From IMG/VR virus record IMGVR_UViG_3300012943_000005, positions 1 to 58,911 of that record: a stretch of DNA of 58,911 nt. One strand, written 5' to 3'. Below are positions 4,948-11,644 of this stretch, one piece after another. Both the position numbers and the translations under genes were made by a program. The notes under the pieces are model-generated. The model was not told where the DNA came from, searched no databases, and worked only from the letters and a program-made list of their open reading frames with translations. Source of the DNA: a virus. Taxonomy: Duplodnaviria; Caudoviricetes. How positions within the stretch are numbered: the first letter of the stretch is position 1; every line of letters begins with the position of its first letter.

Positions 4948-5039
4948 GGAACCTGCTCCTCGGAATCGAAGGGGTGCTGCGCTAAGCGCTGTCGATACCG
5001 GGCACCAAGGCTCCAGTGGAAAGTCTTCCTGATCGGGCA

Positions 5040-5068
5040 GGGTACTCCTCCCAGAGGTGTCTGTCAGC
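5040..5068 (-). promoter_or_regulatory. Putative capsid promoter
   Basis: Minus strand CTGACA-N17-TACCCT upstream of the capsid gene. Confidence 0.4.
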
Positions 5069-5077
5069 CGGGGGGTC

Positions 5078-5091
5078 TTATCCAGGGATAA
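5078..5091. repeat. Conserved junction palindrome TTATCCAGGGATAA
   Basis: Matches TTAKCC-NN-GGMTAA; just upstream of the capsid promoter. Confidence 0.85.
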
Positions 5092-5161
5092 AGTGAGCCC
5101 CCAGGGGATCTCTCAGGACCGGCGGCCTGCGTTCTCCCCCCGAGTCTGCGCAGGTCGCCGC

Positions 5162-5773
5162 TCACTCATCCTGAATGCACACCCACACCGTGAGGTCCCG
5201 ATCCAGAGGTAGCCGCTGATGGATGCCGACCTCGGTGAAGGTGAACCCGGAGGGACAGTCCCCACTGGGCCGGGGAGAGGGCGTCGGCGCTGGCGACCCA
5301 GCCGGACCGCGCTCGCCTGGCTCACCCTGCTCACCCTGTGCACCGCGTGGTCCACGCTTACCCTGCTCACCGGCTGGACCCCGGTCACCGGTGTCACCCT
5401 TCTCGCCCTTGCTGCCGCTCTTGCCGTCCTGACCCGCCGGACCCTGTTCCCCAGTGTCGCCCCGCACCCCCGGCGAGCCCTGCTGTCCCGGACCCCCGTC
5501 ACTGCCCGGCACGCCATCCGACCCATCGAGTCCTGGCGGTCCGGTCGGCCCCGTCGAGCCCGCAGGCCCTGGCGGTCCGGTCGGTCCTGGTGGTCCGGCA
5601 GGTCCTGGCGGTCCCTGTGGCCCCTGTGGTCCCGGGATGCTGACCCCGGCATTGCTGGTGTTGTTTGGGAAGACCAGCCCGACGAAGACGGTGGAGGCGA
5701 AGGCGAGCAGAGCCAAAAGCCCGGCGACGACGTACCCGGTGGGGCTACTGGTCAGTCGCCCCAGTAGTGGCAC
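5162..5773 (-). CDS. Membrane-anchored collagen-like protein (lysis cassette accessory)
   Basis: N-terminal transmembrane helix, long G-X-Y repeat, C-terminal Cys pair. Confidence 0.8.
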
Positions 5774-6086
5774 TGGACGCCTCTCTCGCGTTGGCGGAGC
5801 GGTCGAACTCCCAGGTACGGGAGCCGTCGGCCGCGCGGGTCATGTTCATGTGCGCGTCGGTGCGTCCGGCCAGGAAGCCGGCCAGCAGGCCGATCAGGGT
5901 ATTGATGACGTCCCCGATCGCACCCACCATTTGCGAAGTGTCGCGGGTTGGCTGCAGTAGCGCCAGCAGTCCCACCAACGCACCGGAGGCCAGCACTGAG
6001 AAGCAGACAGTAAAGGATATTCCTAATATTAGTAAGTCACCCGTGGTGCGATCCGACCACCACGGTGCCTTACGAGCCCGAGCCAT
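5745..6086 (-). CDS. Two-TM membrane protein (holin-like) with recoded 5' end
   Basis: ATG at 6086 with GGAGA RBS; two hydrophobic segments. Confidence 0.7.
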
Positions 6087-6097
6087 TAGGAGTCTCC

Positions 6098-6538
6098 ATG
6101 ACACGTGTGTACCGTCGCCGCCCCGCTGGCATGTCCGTCGAGGACCACTTCTGGTCCCTGGTGAACAAGGCCGGTCCCGACGACTGCTGGCTGTGGGGAG
6201 GTCACGGCGAGCGCTACGGGCAGTACCGGCGACGCGGAGCGCACGTCTGGGCCTACGAACTCACACATGGCCCAGTCCCCCCAGGGCTGTACGTCTGCCA
6301 CACCTGCGACACCCCGCTCTGCTGTAACCCAGCCCACCTCTGGCCTGGCACCAACGGGCAGAACATCGCGGACATGTACGCGAAGGGTCGCGGAGAGAGG
6401 CGCGGGCGGAAGCGGGAGATCGACTACGACCAAGTGCGCACGCTGTACGCCCACGGCCTGACGCAGGACCAGATCGCCGAGCGGCTCGGCTGCTCGCAGT
6501 CGGCGGTATCGGGCATCGTGCGCCGCATCCGGGCGTGA
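6098..6538 (+). CDS. HNH homing endonuclease with C-terminal HTH
   Basis: CWLW...AHVWAY...VCHTCDTPLCCNPAHL...N motif; TQDQIAERLGCSQSAVS HTH; AGGAG RBS; antisense to its neighbours. Confidence 0.9.
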   Translation: MTRVYRRRPAGMSVEDHFWSLVNKAGPDDCWLWGGHGERYGQYRRRGAHVWAYELTHGPVPPGLYVCHTCDTPLCCNPAHLWPGTNGQNIADMYAKGRGERRGRKREIDYDQVRTLYAHGLTQDQIAERLGCSQSAVSGIVRRIRA

Positions 6539-6608
6539 AGCTGATGCCGAGGATCAGAAGATCGCCGGTCGTGCGCTCGGCCCACCATGGCTTCCTCCGC
6601 ACCGCCAT
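6534..6608 (-). pseudogene. Remnant original 5' end of the holin-like gene
   Basis: Encodes [25 protein letters not shown], a duplicate of the N-terminus at 6009-6086, cut off at the HNH 3' end. Confidence 0.8.
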
Positions 6609-6700
6609 CAGGTCAGCCAGACCGTCAGCACGATGACAACGATGAAGAACGCCGCGATGAAAGTGAGGCCCGGGTCGAAGTCAGGCCGCCACTCCGGCAT
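6608..6700 (-). CDS. 30-aa membrane peptide
   Basis: MPEWRPDFDPGLTFIAAFFIVVIVLTVWLT; abuts the upstream stop and has a TGATG overlap downstream. Confidence 0.6.
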   Translation of the reverse strand: MPEWRPDFDPGLTFIAAFFIVVIVLTVWLT

Positions 6701-8881
6701 CTACTGCGAGACCTTGAAGTTGTCGATTCGGATAGCAGCCCCGGCAGCGCCGAACATGATGCCGTGCTTGGTGGCTGTCGGGTGCGCCGTATCCGTCACG
6801 CTGATCACACCCGACCCGAACCGAGCCACGATGGAACTCCCGACACACTCCAACGAGGCCGTGATGGTGACGCTCCCGGAGGCAACTCCGACAGTCTGCG
6901 ATGAGCCGAGAGGTGCCCATACCCCGCCCGCTCGCCTGTAGAGACTGAGGGTTCGAGTGGTGGGGCTGGCCGATGCCACCGACAGCATGTAGTGGTTGTC
7001 AATGTCGGTGACTCGTGCGACCAGGCCCAGTTCGTAGTTCTCCGACCCGTTCGTCACCAGGTCCGCGCGGACGATGACATCGGCTTGGCCGACAGCGACC
7101 CAGGCTCGGTGATACGCCGTCCCTCCGCTCGGGCAGTACGCCTGGTTGGCGTTGATACCCACATTGGCGTCGGTCTGCGTCCACGGCAGACCATCGCTCG
7201 ACGTGCCCAGTGAGGTCGTGTTGTCGGCACGGTTGAAGGTGTCGGTCGTCAGCACGGTCTCGCCGCTTGGAGTCACCGTGTTGGATGCAGCTGACTCTGC
7301 CGAGGAACCAGCGGAGTTGGTGGCCCTGACGGTGAAGGTGTACGCGACTCCATTGGTCAGCCCGGTCACCGGGATGGGTGACCCGGTGCCGGTACCAGTG
7401 AGCCCGCCAGGGGTCGACGTAACGGTGTAGGTGTCGGCTGCCTGGCCCGAGCCAGGCGTGAAGGTGACCGAGGCGGAAGCGTCACCGGCGGTCGCCGTCC
7501 CGATGGTCGGGACACCGGGCGGCGCTGTCGCAGGCGGGTTGCCGCCGGGAAGCATGTCGGCCTTCGCCATGTTGGCGTTCGTCAGCAGCGAGCGCATCTG
7601 GAAGCTCCCGATGTCCCCACCACGACCGGTCACCAGGAGTGAGTCGACGCGAGGAGCTGAGCCTGCGTTGCTGTTGATGACGACGTAGCCAGAGACGTAC
7701 CCCCGCAGAACGTTGTTCCGGTCGAGGATGTGCGCTCTCGGGGTCGGTGCATACCGGGTGTACGTCCAGTGGTTCGTGCCGTCGTCGTAGTCCTCCCAGT
7801 CGAAGAACTCCCCCTTGATGATCGGCCCACCCTCGTAGGAGGGGATGTCCACAATGCCCACGGGGTCGGCAGGGTCGTAGCCGACCAGACCCCAGGGGCA
7901 TTGCTCGATGGTGACGTGCCCGAGCCGAGCGGGATGCCAGAAGCCACGCCGGAACGGCATCCCGATCCGGCAGCGGACGCTGATCATGGTGCGGATGTCG
8001 GCGTGCTCGACCGGACCGAGACCGGCGAAGTAGCCCCACACGGTGACCGCGTCGGCCCGGACGGCCACGTGGTTGTTGTTGCGAGGCAGCATGATCCCGC
8101 AGCCGGTCGGACGGGTCGGCTCAGGTGACTCATCCGGGTTGCCGGTGACGTCGGCGGCGTAACGCTGGACGTCGCACGTCGACACCGACTCCAGGTTCAA
8201 GTTGCACATCGACGGGTTCGGCGGCTGCCGAATCGCCGCACCATCCCAGAAGAAGTGCAGGTTCGTGACCTGGGTGAACCCGGCCGCCTTGTCGACGTCA
8301 GGAGCGCCGAACACCGACGGATGCCCGTAGGTGGCGTGCCATGACTTCGGTGTCGAGTAGAACACCTCGATGACCGACGCCGTGGCCAGTGGCGCGGCCT
8401 GGTTCCCCACGCCTGCCCAGACCCGGCACGGCGTCGGGTCCCCCACGCCGAGCACGCCGATGGTCTTCTTCGGGGTCGACACGTTCGACGGGACTTGTGG
8501 GATCTTGAACATGGCGTACTGGCCGTTCGGTCCAGCAGAGAGCAGCGCGTCCGCGTTGACTCGGTAGACCGTTCTGCGGGGCAGGTACAGCAGGCCCTCG
8601 CCGTTGGCAAGAAGCGCCTCCCAGGCGGCGGCGAAGGCAGCCGTGTCGTCACCGCCGTCGCCAGTGGCCCCGTACGACTCGACATCGAACAGCGGGAGGT
8701 TGGCTGAATCCCCCTGCTCGCCCGGAGGGCCGGGAGGCCCTGGGGGGCCGGGTACCGTGCTGTTCGCACCGGGCGGACCGGGGGGTCCCGGAAGGCCGGG
8801 GATGCCGATCGCGACGCCCGGCTGCTCGACCTCCACAGTAAAGGTGGCCGAGTCGGGTATCTCGATGACGAACTCGTTCAT
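6701..8881 (-). CDS. Tailspike/depolymerase-like protein: collagen repeat, pectate-lyase-like beta-helix, FN3, lectin-like domain
   Basis: GPPGPP repeats; FDVESYGATGDGGDDTAAF motif; GLTNGVAYTFTVRATNSAGSS FN3 signature. Confidence 0.75.
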   Translation of the reverse strand: MNEFVIEIPDSATFTVEVEQPGVAIGIPGLPGPPGPPGANSTVPGPPGPPGPPGEQGDSANLPLFDVESYGATGDGGDDTAAFAAAWEALLANGEGLLYLPRRTVYRVNADALLSAGPNGQYAMFKIPQVPSNVSTPKKTIGVLGVGDPTPCRVWAGVGNQAAPLATASVIEVFYSTPKSWHATYGHPSVFGAPDVDKAAGFTQVTNLHFFWDGAAIRQPPNPSMCNLNLESVSTCDVQRYAADVTGNPDESPEPTRPTGCGIMLPRNNNHVAVRADAVTVWGYFAGLGPVEHADIRTMISVRCRIGMPFRRGFWHPARLGHVTIEQCPWGLVGYDPADPVGIVDIPSYEGGPIIKGEFFDWEDYDDGTNHWTYTRYAPTPRAHILDRNNVLRGYVSGYVVINSNAGSAPRVDSLLVTGRGGDIGSFQMRSLLTNANMAKADMLPGGNPPATAPPGVPTIGTATAGDASASVTFTPGSGQAADTYTVTSTPGGLTGTGTGSPIPVTGLTNGVAYTFTVRATNSAGSSAESAASNTVTPSGETVLTTDTFNRADNTTSLGTSSDGLPWTQTDANVGINANQAYCPSGGTAYHRAWVAVGQADVIVRADLVTNGSENYELGLVARVTDIDNHYMLSVASASPTTRTLSLYRRAGGVWAPLGSSQTVGVASGSVTITASLECVGSSIVARFGSGVISVTDTAHPTATKHGIMFGAAGAAIRIDNFKVSQ

Positions 8882-9258
8882 GGCCGAGTGACGTCCATGA
8901 CAGCGCTGAACTTGCCTTCAACGAGGGTGGTCACCTCGTCCGCTCCGGCAGCCACTTGCAAGTCCCACACCCCGGTCCATGACGACCTGCCGCCCATCGA
9001 GGTCGTCACCTGGTCACCAGGCCAACGGATCGTGCCCTTCCCGTTCACCGCATCGGTGATCGTCACCACGGCGGTTACCGCCGGGTTCGCGTCGGTGATC
9101 TTCTTGCGGGCCTGCGCTGAGAGTGTCTGACCGGTCAGATCCACCGGCGTACCTCCGTTGGTGATGGAGAATGCCATCTCGTTGCGATCACCTGCGCGTA
9201 CGCCGGTGATATTGGCGCACGCAGGCCCTAGTGGAACTACGACACAGGTGGTCATCAC
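8878..9258 (-). CDS. Beta-sandwich fibre/baseplate adaptor protein
   Basis: GD...PVDLTG.T.SAQ.R...VWDLQV pattern; coupled to the spike gene. Confidence 0.6.
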   Translation of the reverse strand: MMTTCVVVPLGPACANITGVRAGDRNEMAFSITNGGTPVDLTGQTLSAQARKKITDANPAVTAVVTITDAVNGKGTIRWPGDQVTTSMGGRSSWTGVWDLQVAAGADEVTTLVEGKFSAVMDVTRP

Positions 9259-11561
9259 GGCATCCCTTCAAGTTGCCACAGCACATAGTCGCGCTTGGAT
9301 GCTGACGCGGAACCTTCCCGCTTCCCGGCGTAGATCGGGCCTGGCGGGGTGAACACCACCCCACCCTCCGGCTCATCCTCGGTGCAGCCGGAGCGGTGCA
9401 TGTCGGTGACGTCGAAGTCCCGCAGCAGCGCCGTCCCGTTCCAGTCGTAGACGTCGAGCCGGTGCAGACCGTCGTGGTTGTGCTCGGTGTCCTCGTTGGT
9501 GGAGCCCCGTAGCCGGTAGATCCGCGACTCCGACGCCCACCAGCCCTGCTGGGTCGGCGAGGTGTCCTTGGTCAGCGTGACCTGCTTGATCGGCTTCGTC
9601 CGATTGGTGCCGTCGGTGAAGTCGGTGCGGTCGAACAGGTAGAACGTCTCCTTGGTGTCGGTCGCGTCGCGGAACATAATGCGGTCGACGTAGCCGCCCA
9701 TCGGCCGCGCGCCCTTGTAGTCCATCTTCTCGCCGGAGGTGCGGGAGACCGTCTTGCCGGGCTTCCAGGCATAGCGGTAGGCCGGGTCTTCTCCGGCCCA
9801 CACGTAGAGGTTCCCGGCGGCGGAGCGGTAGGCGTAGAAGGTCTGGCCGTGCCCGGCGTCGTTGACCTGCATCCAGTTGACGAACGTGCCGTCGTCACGG
9901 AAGCACAGGAACCGGATGTTGCCCTCGTTGTTGTAGTCCTGCGCGACGATCCAGTACGGGTTGTACTTCGTCCCGTCGTCGCAGGTCATGGCGTCGACCC
10001 GGCAGACGCCCTGCAGGTAGGAGACCGACCCGGGCACGGCGTCCATGCTCAGCACCTTCGCCGGGGTCGACTTCCAGCCGGGCTTCGCCGGCGGTGGCGG
10101 CTCCTCGTACTGGTCCAGGTAGTCGGTCGAGAACCAGTTGCCGGTGTACTGCGGTGGCGGCTCCGGCGGGGTCACGCTGCCCTTCGACCCGGCCCACGCG
10201 CGCAGCGCCTTGGCGTCGGCGAACTTGCCGTGGTTCTTGTCGAGCGGCTTCGCGTCGGTGCCCCAGTCGTACTGCCAGAACAACCACTCGGCCTTGATCG
10301 TCGGCTCGCTGCCGGGGTGGGCGATCCACAGGAAGTCGCCGTAGAAGCTGGTGGTGTCGTGGTTGTACCAGTAGTCCTCGTTCGTATACAGCCCGACCAT
10401 CGAGTTCGGGTAGGCCTTCTGCAGCGCCTTGATCGCCTGGTCCTTCTGCGCGCAGGTGGCCGTGCCGTCCTTGTCGTACTCCCAGTCCACCCCGATCAGC
10501 TCGGCGGTCTTCACGACCTTCTGCGAGACGAACCAGTCCACCTGCGCCTGCACGTCGCCGCTGTTGAGCCAGTGGTAGTGGTCGGCGTAGCCCAGCCGGT
10601 TGCGGATGTAGGAGCGCTGGTCATTGCCCTTCTCGTTGGCGTACGACTTGCCCTCGCTGGTCTTGACGAAGGCGTACTGCCAGGCGGTGTCGGACTGCCA
10701 GGCGTTGTCGTTGTTGCTGCTGATGTCGATGCCGTACAGGTAGTCGGTGTCGTAGACGGGCACCCCCGGCGACGATGAGGCGGCCTGTACTTGTTGAGCG
10801 CCCGCCGCCCCGGCGCTGCCTGTGGGGGTGACCTCCTCACCGGCGATCAGCGGTGCTTGGAAAGTTTCACCCTGGGCGCTACTTTCCAAGTCGGAATCGG
10901 CGTTTTCGCGGGTTTTGACCTGGGATGGCTGCTCGGTGTCACCGGCCCAGCCGTTGACCAGCGCCTGGACCACGAAGGTCGCACCCTCCGGCTTGGAGGT
11001 GACCACGGGGTACGTGCTGCCTGGCCCACTCCGCCCGTTGAGGGAGCCGTTCGCCGTCACCACGACCTTCTCGCCGACCTTCACCTTGTTGGGGTTGGTC
11101 GGGTTGGTGGGTGCGATTGGTGTGGGCTGATAGTCCAGCACTGGCTGGGGATCGTCGATCACACTGCAGGACCAGCTGCCCTTGGTGTCAGCGTGGTACT
11201 CCATGTGCAGGTGTGGGCCGGAGACGTTGCCCTCCGCCCCCACGGAGGCGATGTAGTCCCCCACTTCGACCCACACCCCGTCCTTGGGGCGGTCGGTCGT
11301 GTGGGCGAAGAAGACCTCGCCGTCGCCGAACGGCTGCCCCGGGTCGGGGCTGATCGCGAACTGGTGGTTGCCGAACGCGCTCCCGTAGGAGCGGTGCCTG
11401 ATCTGGCCACGGATCGGGGCGGTGATGTCGGTGCCCGCATTGCAGGCGAAGTCGACCCCGGTGTGGATGCCGTTGCCGTTGGCGTCCTCGTTGCACGACC
11501 ACATCGAGCCGCGCTTGCCGTACGGGGTGGAGACACCAACACCCGGGATCGGGTACGTCAT
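9255..11561 (-). CDS. Multidomain endolysin: M23 peptidase, SH3-like, GH25 muramidase, C-terminal propeller-like domain
   Basis: HTGVD and GPHLHME (M23); LNGRSGPG (SH3b); YGIDISSN, FVKTSEG and VDWE (GH25); start MTYPIPG at 11561. Confidence 0.85.
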   Translation of the reverse strand: MTYPIPGVGVSTPYGKRGSMWSCNEDANGNGIHTGVDFACNAGTDITAPIRGQIRHRSYGSAFGNHQFAISPDPGQPFGDGEVFFAHTTDRPKDGVWVEVGDYIASVGAEGNVSGPHLHMEYHADTKGSWSCSVIDDPQPVLDYQPTPIAPTNPTNPNKVKVGEKVVVTANGSLNGRSGPGSTYPVVTSKPEGATFVVQALVNGWAGDTEQPSQVKTRENADSDLESSAQGETFQAPLIAGEEVTPTGSAGAAGAQQVQAASSSPGVPVYDTDYLYGIDISSNNDNAWQSDTAWQYAFVKTSEGKSYANEKGNDQRSYIRNRLGYADHYHWLNSGDVQAQVDWFVSQKVVKTAELIGVDWEYDKDGTATCAQKDQAIKALQKAYPNSMVGLYTNEDYWYNHDTTSFYGDFLWIAHPGSEPTIKAEWLFWQYDWGTDAKPLDKNHGKFADAKALRAWAGSKGSVTPPEPPPQYTGNWFSTDYLDQYEEPPPPAKPGWKSTPAKVLSMDAVPGSVSYLQGVCRVDAMTCDDGTKYNPYWIVAQDYNNEGNIRFLCFRDDGTFVNWMQVNDAGHGQTFYAYRSAAGNLYVWAGEDPAYRYAWKPGKTVSRTSGEKMDYKGARPMGGYVDRIMFRDATDTKETFYLFDRTDFTDGTNRTKPIKQVTLTKDTSPTQQGWWASESRIYRLRGSTNEDTEHNHDGLHRLDVYDWNGTALLRDFDVTDMHRSGCTEDEPEGGVVFTPPGPIYAGKREGSASASKRDYVLWQLEGMP

Positions 11562-11644
11562 CAGCTGAAGATGCCGATGAGCGCGAACACCAGCAACAGC
11601 ACGACGATGACGAGGATCGTCGGAACCATCCATGACTGGTTCAT
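11561..11644 (-). CDS. 27-aa membrane peptide upstream of the lysin
   Basis: MNQSWMVPTILVIVVLLLVFALIGIFS; stop/start overlaps on both sides. Confidence 0.6.
   Translation of the reverse strand: MNQSWMVPTILVIVVLLLVFALIGIFS

Follow-up and report, generated by a model that had tools for sequence, protein, structure and literature searches.

A small membrane-protein gene in a complete phage genome from soil (58.9 kb, GC content 67%) is interrupted by a gene for an HNH endonuclease, which brings along a replacement 5′ end for the gene that it splits. We analyzed the whole genome, a stretch of 58,911 bases referred to as the window, and consider it probable that a homing endonuclease gene that is free-standing and belongs to the HNH_3 plus helix-turn-helix (HTH) type entered the membrane-protein gene as a 525-bp rescue cassette, with homing and recoding-based protection as proposed below. 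The cassette (6009..6533, features on both strands) is composed of the replacement end, termed patch, a short spacer and the HNH gene. It is located between codons 26 and 27 (T26|V27) of a conserved gene that encodes a two-helix protein of 113 amino acids. We set its ends where the likeness between the patch and the remnant of the original gene start stops, and by comparison with two uninterrupted proteins, P0001 and P0002.

As the earlier note had described, the HNH gene is flanked by two copies of the same N-terminus, one of 25 codons at 6608-6534 and one of 26 codons at 6086-6009, the latter in frame down to 5745. The first copy is the remnant (6534..6608, minus strand), which holds native codons 1-25 in genome-typical codon usage and is still joined to the stop codon of the upstream ORF. 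This ORF from our ORF list (6608..6700, minus strand) encodes a small hydrophobic product of 30 amino acids without a Pfam family, and its stop overlaps the remnant ATG by one base (TGATG). The second copy (copy B) is the element-borne patch (6009..6086, minus strand), consisting of a new ATG and 25 codons and preceded by its own Shine-Dalgarno sequence. It is in frame with the native remainder of the gene, codons 27-113 and the stop (5745..6008, minus strand; GC3 0.82), so that a single continuous 113-amino-acid ORF starts at the patch ATG, with no stop or frame break past the patch. A search of this protein against the record returned 5748-6086 at 100% identity and 6531-6602 at 75% identity (E 4.2e-9). 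The public gene call of the record starts only at residue 31 (P0003, 83 amino acids) and thereby skips the patch.

The divergent start codons of the patch and the HNH gene are separated by a spacer of 11 bp (6087..6097). Its palindrome GGAGTCTCC at 6089-6097 supplies the ribosome-binding sites of both genes, with GGAG seven bases before the patch ATG and AGGAG five bases before the HNH ATG. At the other end of the cassette, the HNH stop codon (6536-6538) lies within the last two codons of the remnant, and the last sense codon and stop together take five bases from it. The shared ribosome-binding palindrome and an HNH stop built from remnant bases suggest an adapted unit. No stop codon ends the remnant itself at the junction, and its frame stays open to 6261, giving a read-through stretch of 90 codons (6261..6533, minus strand) antisense to the HNH gene and within an ORF of 115 amino acids. 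The GC content by codon position in this frame is.66/.88/.52, compared with.67/.53/.85 in the HNH gene, and a Pfam search at E up to 0.1 found no family for it. The frame is not coding-like, and the read-through tail is probably meaningless.

The 13 codons of the patch next to the junction (6009..6047, minus strand) mark the place in the genome where codons are rarest and GC content is lowest. The claim of thirteen consecutive synonymous codons that all differ between the copies was confirmed: 13/13 encode the same amino acid with different DNA, and 16 of 39 bases are changed. Over the 19 alignable codons, patch and remnant share 17 residues and differ at 20 of 57 bases, including 14 of the 15 degenerate codons that encode the same residue. 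The respelling is non-random and exceeds chance, with a probability of 5.5e-7 that a genome-typical draw differs from the remnant at all 13 codons. Among 14,738 nine-codon windows from 40 genes, the eight lowest-scoring ones all fall into the recoded stretch, and the 30-mers starting at 6005-6011 have a GC content of 26.7%, the minimum of all 58,911 bases. The patch holds two of the 12 TTA and two of the six ATA codons of the 40 genes, and the recoded stretch contains a 10-bp palindrome, CTAATATTAG, together with a TAATAT hexamer. Inspection against the codon table revealed that the AT-richer codon was taken in six of the seven places with a GC-neutral synonym available. AT-richness goes beyond the need to avoid identity, which points to a further or different selective cause.

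At the protein level, the patch keeps the lineage-specific residues G22, S24 and F25, and its exact 13-mer is common to only two of 48 homologues, P0001 and P0002. Because these local-lineage residues are kept, the patch protein is local and the patch DNA is not. The DNA of 73 distinct uninterrupted alleles from relatives is nearer to the remnant in 59 cases and nearer to the patch in four, with ten ties.

The split gene is uninterrupted in its two closest relatives, P0001 (89% identical) and P0002 (87%). Both have the remnant-type N-terminus, with a stretch of 19 residues identical to the remnant, and run through the junction. The HNH-free alleles anticipated earlier, in which 6534 is joined to 6008, are therefore borne out at the protein level; at the DNA level, the join comes only from relatives with proteins at most 70% identical. 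No close DNA relatives were found by megablast or tblastn against GenBank phages, and none in viral contigs scanned with a single protein. A scan of one genome per species gave only a single contig. Its bin carries the label Microlunatus sp., but one contig is too little to assign a host. Among 40 viral loci, 72 metagenome loci and one genome locus, three overlapping sets that comprise the 73 distinct alleles, none has an HNH gene within or beside the membrane-protein gene, and none has a second N-terminus. Two loci with weak HNH-like matches (E 0.14) by the homologue, L090 and L091, were rejected after their ORFs had been read, as the matches lie antisense within a collagen-like gene. Another locus, L159, in which the match begins at residue 27, merely has a diverged N-terminus without insertion. 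The insertion point is located in a conserved block: in 49 sequences, T26 is invariant and C28 is at least 90% conserved.

The 113-amino-acid protein contains two hydrophobic segments (residues 14-47 and 53-74), defined by 19-residue hydropathy windows above 1.6. It belongs to no named family in Pfam, PHROGs or Atlas and matches no holin family; its nearest Atlas clusters are viral hypothetical proteins. In one locus (L053), the reading frame of the homologue begins at the stop codon that ends the gene for a 571-amino-acid protein, which by eye resembles a GH25 lysin. Three ORFs lie in the window between the 113-amino-acid gene and the gene for a 792-amino-acid M23 and GH25 protein. The label holin-like in the earlier note is plausible, which makes the protein a candidate holin. 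A terminator-like site was found at 5646-5658 on the plus strand in a promoter and terminator scan.

The HNH gene (6098..6538, plus strand) is an intact ORF, oriented against the split gene, and encodes 146 amino acids with an HNH_3 domain and a C-terminal HTH, based on Pfam and PHROG. The Pfam match to HNH_3 (PF13392) covers residues 47-89 with 37 bits against a cut-off of 24.8 (E 2.6e-9); HTH families, including HTH_7, HTH_23 and others, are matched too, and the PHROG matches are endonuclease families. A six-frame search of the record gave 39.2 bits at 6236-6364, the sole HNH_3 match in the genome. In an alignment of 18 sequences, the protein keeps all 14 invariant columns: C30, W31, W33, H68, C70, D71 and C75 as well as N77, P78, H80, G84, N89, D92 and R114. 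An AlphaFold model of the protein has a mean pLDDT of 87. Its residues 11-99 align weakly with I-PpoI (Z 5.2, rmsd 3.7, 85 aligned) and residues 103-146 with resolvase-type HTH domains (Z 6.6). When solved structures were searched by sequence, the HTH part alone was matched; Foldseek returned no match at E 0.001 or better, and VIA-align produced only middling scores. The structure-match lists do not include I-HmuI, a phage HNH homing enzyme (PDB 1U3E). We can therefore point to no close relative among the solved homing enzymes.

The nearest relative of the HNH protein is 54% identical, a 30-mer from the patch has no match in viral contigs, and the exact cassette was found nowhere else. With the cassette seen only once and the nearest HNH protein this distant, this particular copy is only putatively mobile. 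The element shows traits of homing endonuclease genes, namely a nuclease domain combined with a DNA-binding HTH, sporadic presence and a position outside any intron or intein. Occurrence at the same site in different backgrounds is not seen for the window cassette but for a second cassette, the L322 family, described in the following.

Four further phage loci show the same layout, in genes for a terminase (L049), a DNA ligase (L030) and a helicase (L322) and in an unnamed gene (L266). In all four, the HNH gene is co-oriented with its target and the patch differs from the remnant near the junction. In the terminase case, the HNH-free alleles L166 and L167 differ from the remnant at one and from the patch at eight of 27 junction bases, counted by eye; the nuclease gene of this locus is decayed (118 amino acids, no Pfam match). 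A screen for flank repeats with positional constraints yielded 6/125 real pairs as opposed to 7/500 mismatched pairs. Given these mismatched-pair controls, E-values from the screen prove little by themselves. Two of the six pairs were rejected on inspection. Seven flank-repeat candidates were taken as noise: L245, on the basis of its ORF listing, L246, which carries the same match, and L009, L020, L022, L271 and L317, judged by alignments.

The helicase cassette occupies the same codon in nine genomic backgrounds, any two of which are at most 70% alike over the 150 bases upstream. The nine loci have the leader, the HNH gene and the patch-type start in common, and each has its own 17-codon remnant. 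The remnant of one member (L326) is identical at 50 of 51 bases to the intact start of the HNH-free relatives L382, L384 and L395. The upstream flank of L326 shares 93-96% identity with those of L382, L384-L388 and L390 but only 61% with that of L395. The functional 5′ end of the family is itself identical to that of HNH-free relatives. What looks like recoding in the L322 family may therefore be ordinary allelic divergence brought from the donor, which is arguable for the window cassette too.

We propose that the window cassette spreads as follows. In cassette-free phages, the HNH enzyme would recognize the native T26|V27 junction, and the empty allele would be nicked or cut during co-infection. 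Repair would then copy the cassette between two homology arms, the native 5′ end on the left and the sequence from codon 27 onward on the right. With the native 5′ end serving as left arm, the first 25 codons of the recipient would always survive as a remnant. In the occupied allele, the recognition site would be split and could be rebuilt only where the patch meets codon 27 and the following sequence; because all 13 junction codons are respelled at this place, the full site could not exist there. The respelling should thus prevent self-cleavage and should also lower recombination between remnant and patch, which would delete the cassette. The transcript of the late operon would extend across the HNH gene in antisense, and translation of the membrane protein would begin at the start codon of the patch. 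In the weakest step of this proposal, the patch may also hold the promoter of the HNH gene, being the only cassette DNA upstream of this gene and the most AT-rich spot of the genome. No sigma-70-like promoter turned up when 5000-7500 was scanned for consensus sites.

The respelling could alternatively serve mainly expression control, either by acting on the antisense HNH gene as its promoter or operator or through a cluster of very rare codons (TTA, CTA and ATA) that slow or time translation of the membrane protein, possibly a holin. As the main cause we regard this as somewhat unlikely; expression control can coexist with the explanation that we prefer. The position of the lowest-GC 30-mer, 58-93 bases upstream of the HNH start on the plus strand, would suit a promoter, as would the palindrome and the TAATAT hexamer inside the stretch and the preference for AT-richer codons in six of seven places with a GC-neutral option, but no two-hexamer promoter match was found. 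The phage carries no tRNA genes, and the share of the patch in the TTA (2/12) and ATA codons (2/6) fits an effect on translation. The RNA fold around the start codon, on the other hand, is no better than that of shuffled sequences (z –0.64). The four analogous cassettes also differ from their remnants near the junction, and since their HNH genes are co-oriented with the targets, a promoter in the patch is not needed there.

It is unlikely that the cassette is a dead scar, that is, the product of one imprecise repair or illegitimate recombination event with a patch that represents the 5′ end of a diverged donor allele, owes its spelling to ordinary synonymous divergence and is under no present selection for immunity or mobility. 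Such an origin is compatible with the single occupied allele known for this gene and with the L322 family, in which the functional start equals the allele of HNH-free phages, and the decayed terminase nuclease indicates that such cassettes do die in place. The window cassette, however, has an intact HNH ORF with every invariant residue kept. The difference at 13/13 codons, the rarest of the genome, exceeds synonymous saturation under genome-typical usage, and a donor at such saturation should differ at the variable residues 22, 24 and 25, where the patch has the residues of the local lineage. The compact shared palindrome and the remnant bases in the HNH stop likewise suggest an adapted unit.

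A self-splicing intron or an intein as carrier of the HNH gene, with an incidental duplicate, is highly improbable: phage group I introns are known to harbour HNH genes of this general type, but cmscan against Rfam gave no matches in 5400-7000 on both strands at E up to 1, an intein is impossible because the HNH ORF is antisense to its host gene, and a patch with its own ribosome-binding site and ATG would be pointless if splicing joined the remnant to codon 27. The idea of a non-splicing homing element with a recoded repair copy, put forward in the earlier note, is therefore supported by the uninterrupted alleles, the Shine-Dalgarno sequence and ATG of the patch, the empty Rfam search and the recurrence of the layout.

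The record is metagenomic. Contigs of three soil runs were aligned to the window. An independently built contig of 5,325 bases from run X1, possibly based on the same reads as the record, spans 5200-7400 with 0 differences. Run X2, from another study, contributed a contig of 229 bases within the HNH gene (6153-6381) with one difference, and run X3 only a short piece (5332-5539) with 0 differences; these two pieces are too short to be informative on the cassette junctions. None of the contigs contains a joint that skips the cassette. At 6458-6531, many short low-identity pieces pile up in the soil runs, which we take to be unrelated HTH-coding DNA. A false duplication assembled from two merged strain variants is hardly credible in view of the X1 contig, even if built from the same reads, the X2 contig inside the HNH gene, the exact fit of reading frames and translation signals, and the 20 differences in 57 aligned bases, which would not confuse an assembler.

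Several known systems restore or replace parts of an interrupted gene. I-HmuI of phage SPO1 is an intron-encoded HNH enzyme that targets conserved coding sequence, and splicing restores its host gene. Restoration there takes place by RNA splicing, whereas in the window, which gave no intron model match, it takes place at the DNA level. A substitute end that keeps the gene functional is supplied by prophages integrated in tRNA genes and, in the icd gene of E. coli, by phage 21 and e14; in icd, it carries numerous silent differences. Unlike the window cassette, these elements use an integrase and att-site recombination, affect 3′ ends and are not known to involve nuclease-driven copying. In the mobE/nrdA case, a free-standing HNH gene resides in an essential gene without intron or intein, and function is kept as two polypeptides; unlike in the window, no duplicated, respelled gene end is known to be involved. 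This mobE insertion splits nrdA of Aeromonas phage Aeh1 (PMC10448857).

The closest known kinds are the MobA/gene 60 element of T4 and endonuclease genes in fungal mitochondria that bring substitute gene ends. MobA is an HNH endonuclease encoded in the topoisomerase large-subunit gene of T4-like phages, and its element, which has inserted many times, protects alleles that already carry it against the encoded nuclease and encodes HomR, a segment homologous to the nick-site target with 67-81% DNA identity (bioRxiv 10.1101/2022.08.31.505936). As described there, it shares with the window an HNH cassette in a phage coding sequence and an element-borne, DNA-divergent homologue of the target. In the MobA case, however, the parental segment has been lost by deletion, the gene yields two polypeptides that bear extra tails, and protection needs a 50-nt translational bypass insert. 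The window, by comparison, keeps the parental 5′ end as a remnant, encodes one polypeptide with a complete replacement N-terminus, shows no bypass and has its nuclease gene on the opposite strand.

Alternative gene ends in fungal mitochondria include Allomyces atp6, Ophiostoma rps3, Phlebia atp6 and cox2, and duplications of the atp9 N-terminus (PMC4019555 and PMC7487136). Here as in the window, a homing endonuclease gene is combined with an in-frame replacement end, and the original end stays behind as a pseudogene-like fragment. These fungal cases differ in that they concern organelle genomes and LAGLIDADG or GIY-YIG enzymes and mostly replace 3′ ends; a complete synonymous respelling and a shared divergent ribosome-binding site are features of the window that the fungal passages at hand do not report. 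The same design logic has been engineered in HomeR CRISPR gene drives, in which a nuclease homes into an essential gene together with a recoded, cleavage-resistant rescue (PMC7968924), although HomeR is RNA-guided and used in insects, whereas the phage element is natural and protein-guided. In the openly readable full texts that were searched, no report of a phage with a kept remnant and an element-borne, respelled 5′ end was found; the supplements of bioRxiv 10.1101/2022.08.31.505936 and PMC10448857 could hold similar cases.

These comparisons lead us to suggest, tentatively and with some doubt, a general, unnamed class of phage homing-endonuclease cassettes that would invade conserved genes within their first 10-30 codons, with no intron or intein involved, provide a cleavage-resistant start and leave a remnant at each homing event. 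The patch of the window may in addition be doubly coded, as N-terminus and as HNH promoter or operator. If true, the element would be a natural "home-and-rescue" drive, and double coding would explain why the patch is the most AT-rich spot of a genome with 67% GC. Homing endonuclease genes in coding DNA are usually said to hide in self-splicing introns or inteins, or else to sit intergenically. Gene repair at the DNA level by an element-borne, respelled gene start would be a third solution in phages. It would offer a clean natural system for learning which silent changes protect a site from an HNH enzyme and indicate that DNA spelling can be selected against codon preference. It would also explain a type of annotation error, in which patches are skipped in gene calls and remnants appear as orphan mini-ORFs. 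The helicase cassette, located at the borders of diverged sequence blocks, is further evidence for a role of nuclease genes in shaping the mosaic structure of phage genomes.

The earlier note had placed the HNH gene between two copies of one N-terminus, and this was borne out by reading of the minus strand, by the ORF list and by a search in which the 113-aa protein, used as query against the record, recovered both gene starts. The native start (the remnant) comprises 25 codons (6608-6534, minus strand), and the replacement start (the patch) comprises 26 codons (6086-6009, minus strand) that continue in frame to 5745, giving 113 aa. Also as claimed there, the 13 codons next to the junction encode the same residues in both copies and all 13 differ, with 16 of 39 bases changed. 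Over the 19 alignable codons, 14 of the 15 degenerate codons for a common residue differ. Based on the genome's own codon usage (14,917 codons), a typical spelling would differ from the remnant at all 13 codons with P = 5.5e-7. The patch contains codons that are rare in this genome: TTA (1% of Leu codons), CTA (2.3%), ATA (0.7% of Ile codons), TTT (2.1%) and ACT (5.9%), and it alone holds two of the 12 TTA and two of the 6 ATA codons of 40 genes. The eight lowest-scoring nine-codon windows among the 14,738 of these genes all lie at the patch, and the lowest-GC 30-mers genome-wide (26.7%, against 67.1% for the whole window) are those starting at 6005-6011. The protein collection's gene call for 5745-6086 (P0003) starts at residue 31 and has 83 aa, the automatic annotation having missed the rare-codon patch.

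The HNH ORF (6098-6538, plus strand) encodes 146 aa with a Pfam HNH_3 domain (37 bits, cut-off 24.8) and a C-terminal helix-turn-helix. It is the only HNH_3 gene of the genome, in which no PF01844-type HNH was found. Aligned with 17 relatives, it has kept each of the 14 invariant columns, so the HNH gene looks intact. Its start codon and that of the patch are divergent and 11 bases apart, and the palindrome GGAGTCTCC in this spacer, as read from the sequence, supplies a Shine-Dalgarno motif to both genes, at 7 bases from the patch ATG and at 5 bases from the HNH ATG. At its other end, the HNH gene has its stop codon (6536-6538) inside the last two remnant codons. Patch, spacer and HNH gene make up the inserted cassette of 525 bp (6009-6533). 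The ATG of the remnant is still present, overlapping the stop of a 30-aa ORF, and the remnant frame reads through 90 codons antisense to the HNH gene; the GC pattern of this read-through is non-coding, and a family search with it gave no match.

An intein is ruled out, since the nuclease ORF runs on the strand opposite to the host gene. An intron is made very unlikely by the lack of any Rfam match within 5400-7000 at E up to 1 and by the patch's own translation signals, so that the claim of a non-splicing element is supported. Against an assembly artefact stands an independently built 5,325-base contig from soil run X1, possibly from the same reads, that spans 5200-7400 with 0 differences. A run of another study contains 229 bases of the HNH gene, with a single difference.

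The record, of 58,911 bases, is that of a whole virus, with direct terminal repeats and a completeness rating of 100%. No tRNA genes were found in it, and a search of GenBank phages with the region gave no match. The public runs containing its sequence are soil metagenomes. Contigs from runs X2 (6153-6381, 1 difference) and X3 (5332-5539, 0 differences), both of other soil studies, indicate that the phage, or parts of it, is present beyond the source sample. The minus-strand gene order runs from a portal protein and a MuF-like head protein to a 792-aa M23 peptidase/GH25/receptor-binding-propeller protein, a 126-aa ORF, a 726-aa collagen/FN3 protein, the 30-aa hydrophobic ORF and the cassette locus, followed by a 203-aa collagen-like protein, the major head and tail proteins and a head-tail adaptor. 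The combination of M23 peptidase, GH25 muramidase and phage receptor-binding beta-propeller in the 792-aa protein (9255-11633) is unusual for a lysin or tail-associated enzyme. Collagen-repeat proteins flank the locus on both sides (5162-5773 and 6701-8881); the 203-aa protein is hydrophobic at its N-terminus, and its gene begins before the membrane-protein gene has ended. In two relatives' loci (L053, L091), the target-gene homologue is followed by a comparable collagen-repeat pair.

The 113-aa protein has two hydrophobic segments (residues 14-47 and 53-74) and no match in Pfam, PHROG or the named Atlas clusters. In L053, its homologue begins on the stop codon of the gene for a 571-aa protein, by eye a GH25-like lysin; a collagen-like membrane protein comes after the homologue. 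"Holin-like" is therefore no more than a reasonable guess for the target.

Proteins of this family (~80-135 aa) occur on viral and soil metagenome contigs (227 matches at E up to 0.01 from 495 candidates). The closest relatives, P0001 (112 aa, 89% identical) and P0002 (114 aa, 87%), are uninterrupted across the junction and have a 19-residue stretch in common with the remnant, where the patch carries S-D in place of A-E. HNH-free alleles that join 6534 to 6008, as predicted in the earlier note, were thus found at the protein level only. In the overlapping sets of 40 viral, 72 metagenome and 1 genome loci fetched, no HNH gene lies in or beside the target gene and no second N-terminus is present; the only real HNH matches are 1.4-1.8 kb away, and weak matches in L090 and L091 were rejected as noise. 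Among 73 distinct alleles of the 39 recoded bases, 59 are nearer to the remnant, 4 nearer to the patch and 10 tied; their mean GC is 0.62, compared with 0.59 for the remnant and 0.36 for the patch. The insertion point lies in a conserved block (T26 invariant, C28 at least 90% conserved in 49 sequences). Since the patch retains the lineage-specific residues G22, S24 and F25, and the exact 13-mer recurs only in P0001 and P0002 among 48 homologues, it encodes the lineage's own protein in a foreign spelling. An ordinary diverged allele would hardly explain this combination.

We also compared flank against flank in 47 + 79 loci encoding relatives of the HNH protein, a screen that recovered the window itself as positive control (E 3e-10). 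In four loci, a remnant is followed by an endonuclease gene and then by the full gene. In L049 (3924-6009), a 26-codon remnant of a terminase large subunit gene precedes a decayed HNH-like ORF of 118 aa that matches no Pfam family, and the last five common codons before the junction are all respelled. Two HNH-free loci encoding an 84% identical terminase (L166, L167) provide its empty allele in DNA: counted by eye, the 27 junction-adjacent bases show 1 difference from the remnant and 8 from the patch. For five other relatives of this terminase (L206-L208, L210, L211), the match to residues 80-552 spans ~2.1-2.4 kb as opposed to ~1.4 kb, as if an intron, intein or endonuclease gene had been inserted within the gene. 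L030 (1957-3335), a low-GC phage contig, carries a 13-codon remnant of an ATP-dependent DNA ligase gene that starts on the preceding gene's stop codon. Behind this remnant come an HNH_3 gene, which is intact, and the complete ligase gene, whose start is respelled. The third locus, L322 (1221-3380), has a 17-codon remnant of a helicase gene. In L266 (1447-2411; E 0.005), which only probably has the same layout, a remnant of the first 15 codons of the downstream gene runs in frame into the HNH ORF, and translation of the nuclease may begin at the target gene's own start. These four cases rest on anatomy, as the screen statistics are weak alone (11/125 real versus 22/375 mismatched pairs; with positional constraints 6/125 versus 7/500, two of the six being rejected).

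Among 80 loci encoding relatives of the L322 helicase, an HNH gene is directly upstream in 25 and absent there in 55. Eleven complete copies are of the L322 type (81-100% identity), nine of which have a conserved leader, the HNH gene and the patch-type gene start in common, at the same codon. By eye, the leader in this family (L322, L326-L405) has a promoter-like appearance. The 150 bases upstream of these nine are at most 70% alike in every pair, indicating different genomic backgrounds, and each locus has its own 17-codon remnant (61-100% alike pairwise). In the other two copies (L344, L374), most of the remnant is lost. The L326 remnant is identical at 50 of 51 bases to the intact start in HNH-free L382, L384 and L395; in the upstream flank, L326 has 93-96% identity to L382, L384-L388 and L390 but only 61% to L395. 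This comparison of an occupied with an empty allele, made in DNA, shows that the remnant is the recipient's own gene start. In this family, HNH-free close relatives (L328, L329, L340, L341) have exactly the same functional start, so its patch may be the donor's ordinary allele brought in by a long conversion tract, in which case the nuclease gene would mark the boundary between diverged blocks. This calls for caution about the window cassette too. Helicase starts in HNH-free L335-L337 are hybrid-like, with eight remnant-type codons followed by patch-type ones, and may have arisen when a cassette was lost through recombination of the two copies. A second HNH type, ~40% identical to the L322 type, lies directly upstream of the same helicase start in L333, L342, L345-L347, L353-L355, L365, L366, L373, L378 and L381; at these loci the first two helicase codons are altered, and upstream remnants of the helicase N-terminus measure 45 aa in L333 and 32 aa in L353-L355.

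Supported by the intact motif, the cassette-free relatives, the non-random respelling and the recurrence, a homing element that repairs its target with a recoded copy is the reading we retain. Together with the cassette anatomy and the repeated insertion of an analogous cassette, these established features form the basis of the mechanism we propose and, taken as a whole, consider likely. The HNH enzyme would recognize the native sequence across T26|V27, and the break would be repaired from a co-infecting cassette-bearing genome with the native gene start as left arm, regenerating the remnant every time. Respelling of the patch would block rebuilding of the site at the patch/codon-27 junction and reduce recombination between remnant and patch. 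The membrane protein would be translated from the patch's own start on a late read-through transcript. In the weakest step, the patch would double as promoter/operator of the oppositely oriented HNH gene: no other DNA of the cassette lies upstream of the HNH gene, no other spot in the genome is as AT-rich, and the patch includes a TAATAT hexamer and a 10-bp palindrome, but a consensus scan gave no promoter.

Among the openly readable literature, the nearest phage case is the MobA/gene 60 element, an HNH cassette in a topoisomerase gene; its insert encodes HomR, with 67-81% DNA identity to the replaced segment, and self-protection depends on a bypass insert (bioRxiv 10.1101/2022.08.31.505936). 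The parental segment there is deleted and the gene split in two, whereas the window cassette keeps the remnant and a single 113-aa ORF. A phage report of a kept remnant with an element-borne respelled gene start was not found in full-text searches of the openly readable literature. Fungal mitochondrial endonuclease genes supply atp6, cox2 and rps3 with alternative 3′ ends and also come with duplicated N-termini of atp9 (PMC4019555, PMC7487136). Engineered home-and-rescue gene drives have the same design as the window cassette (PMC7968924). The window cassette is a variant on a known kind of element rather than a new kind.
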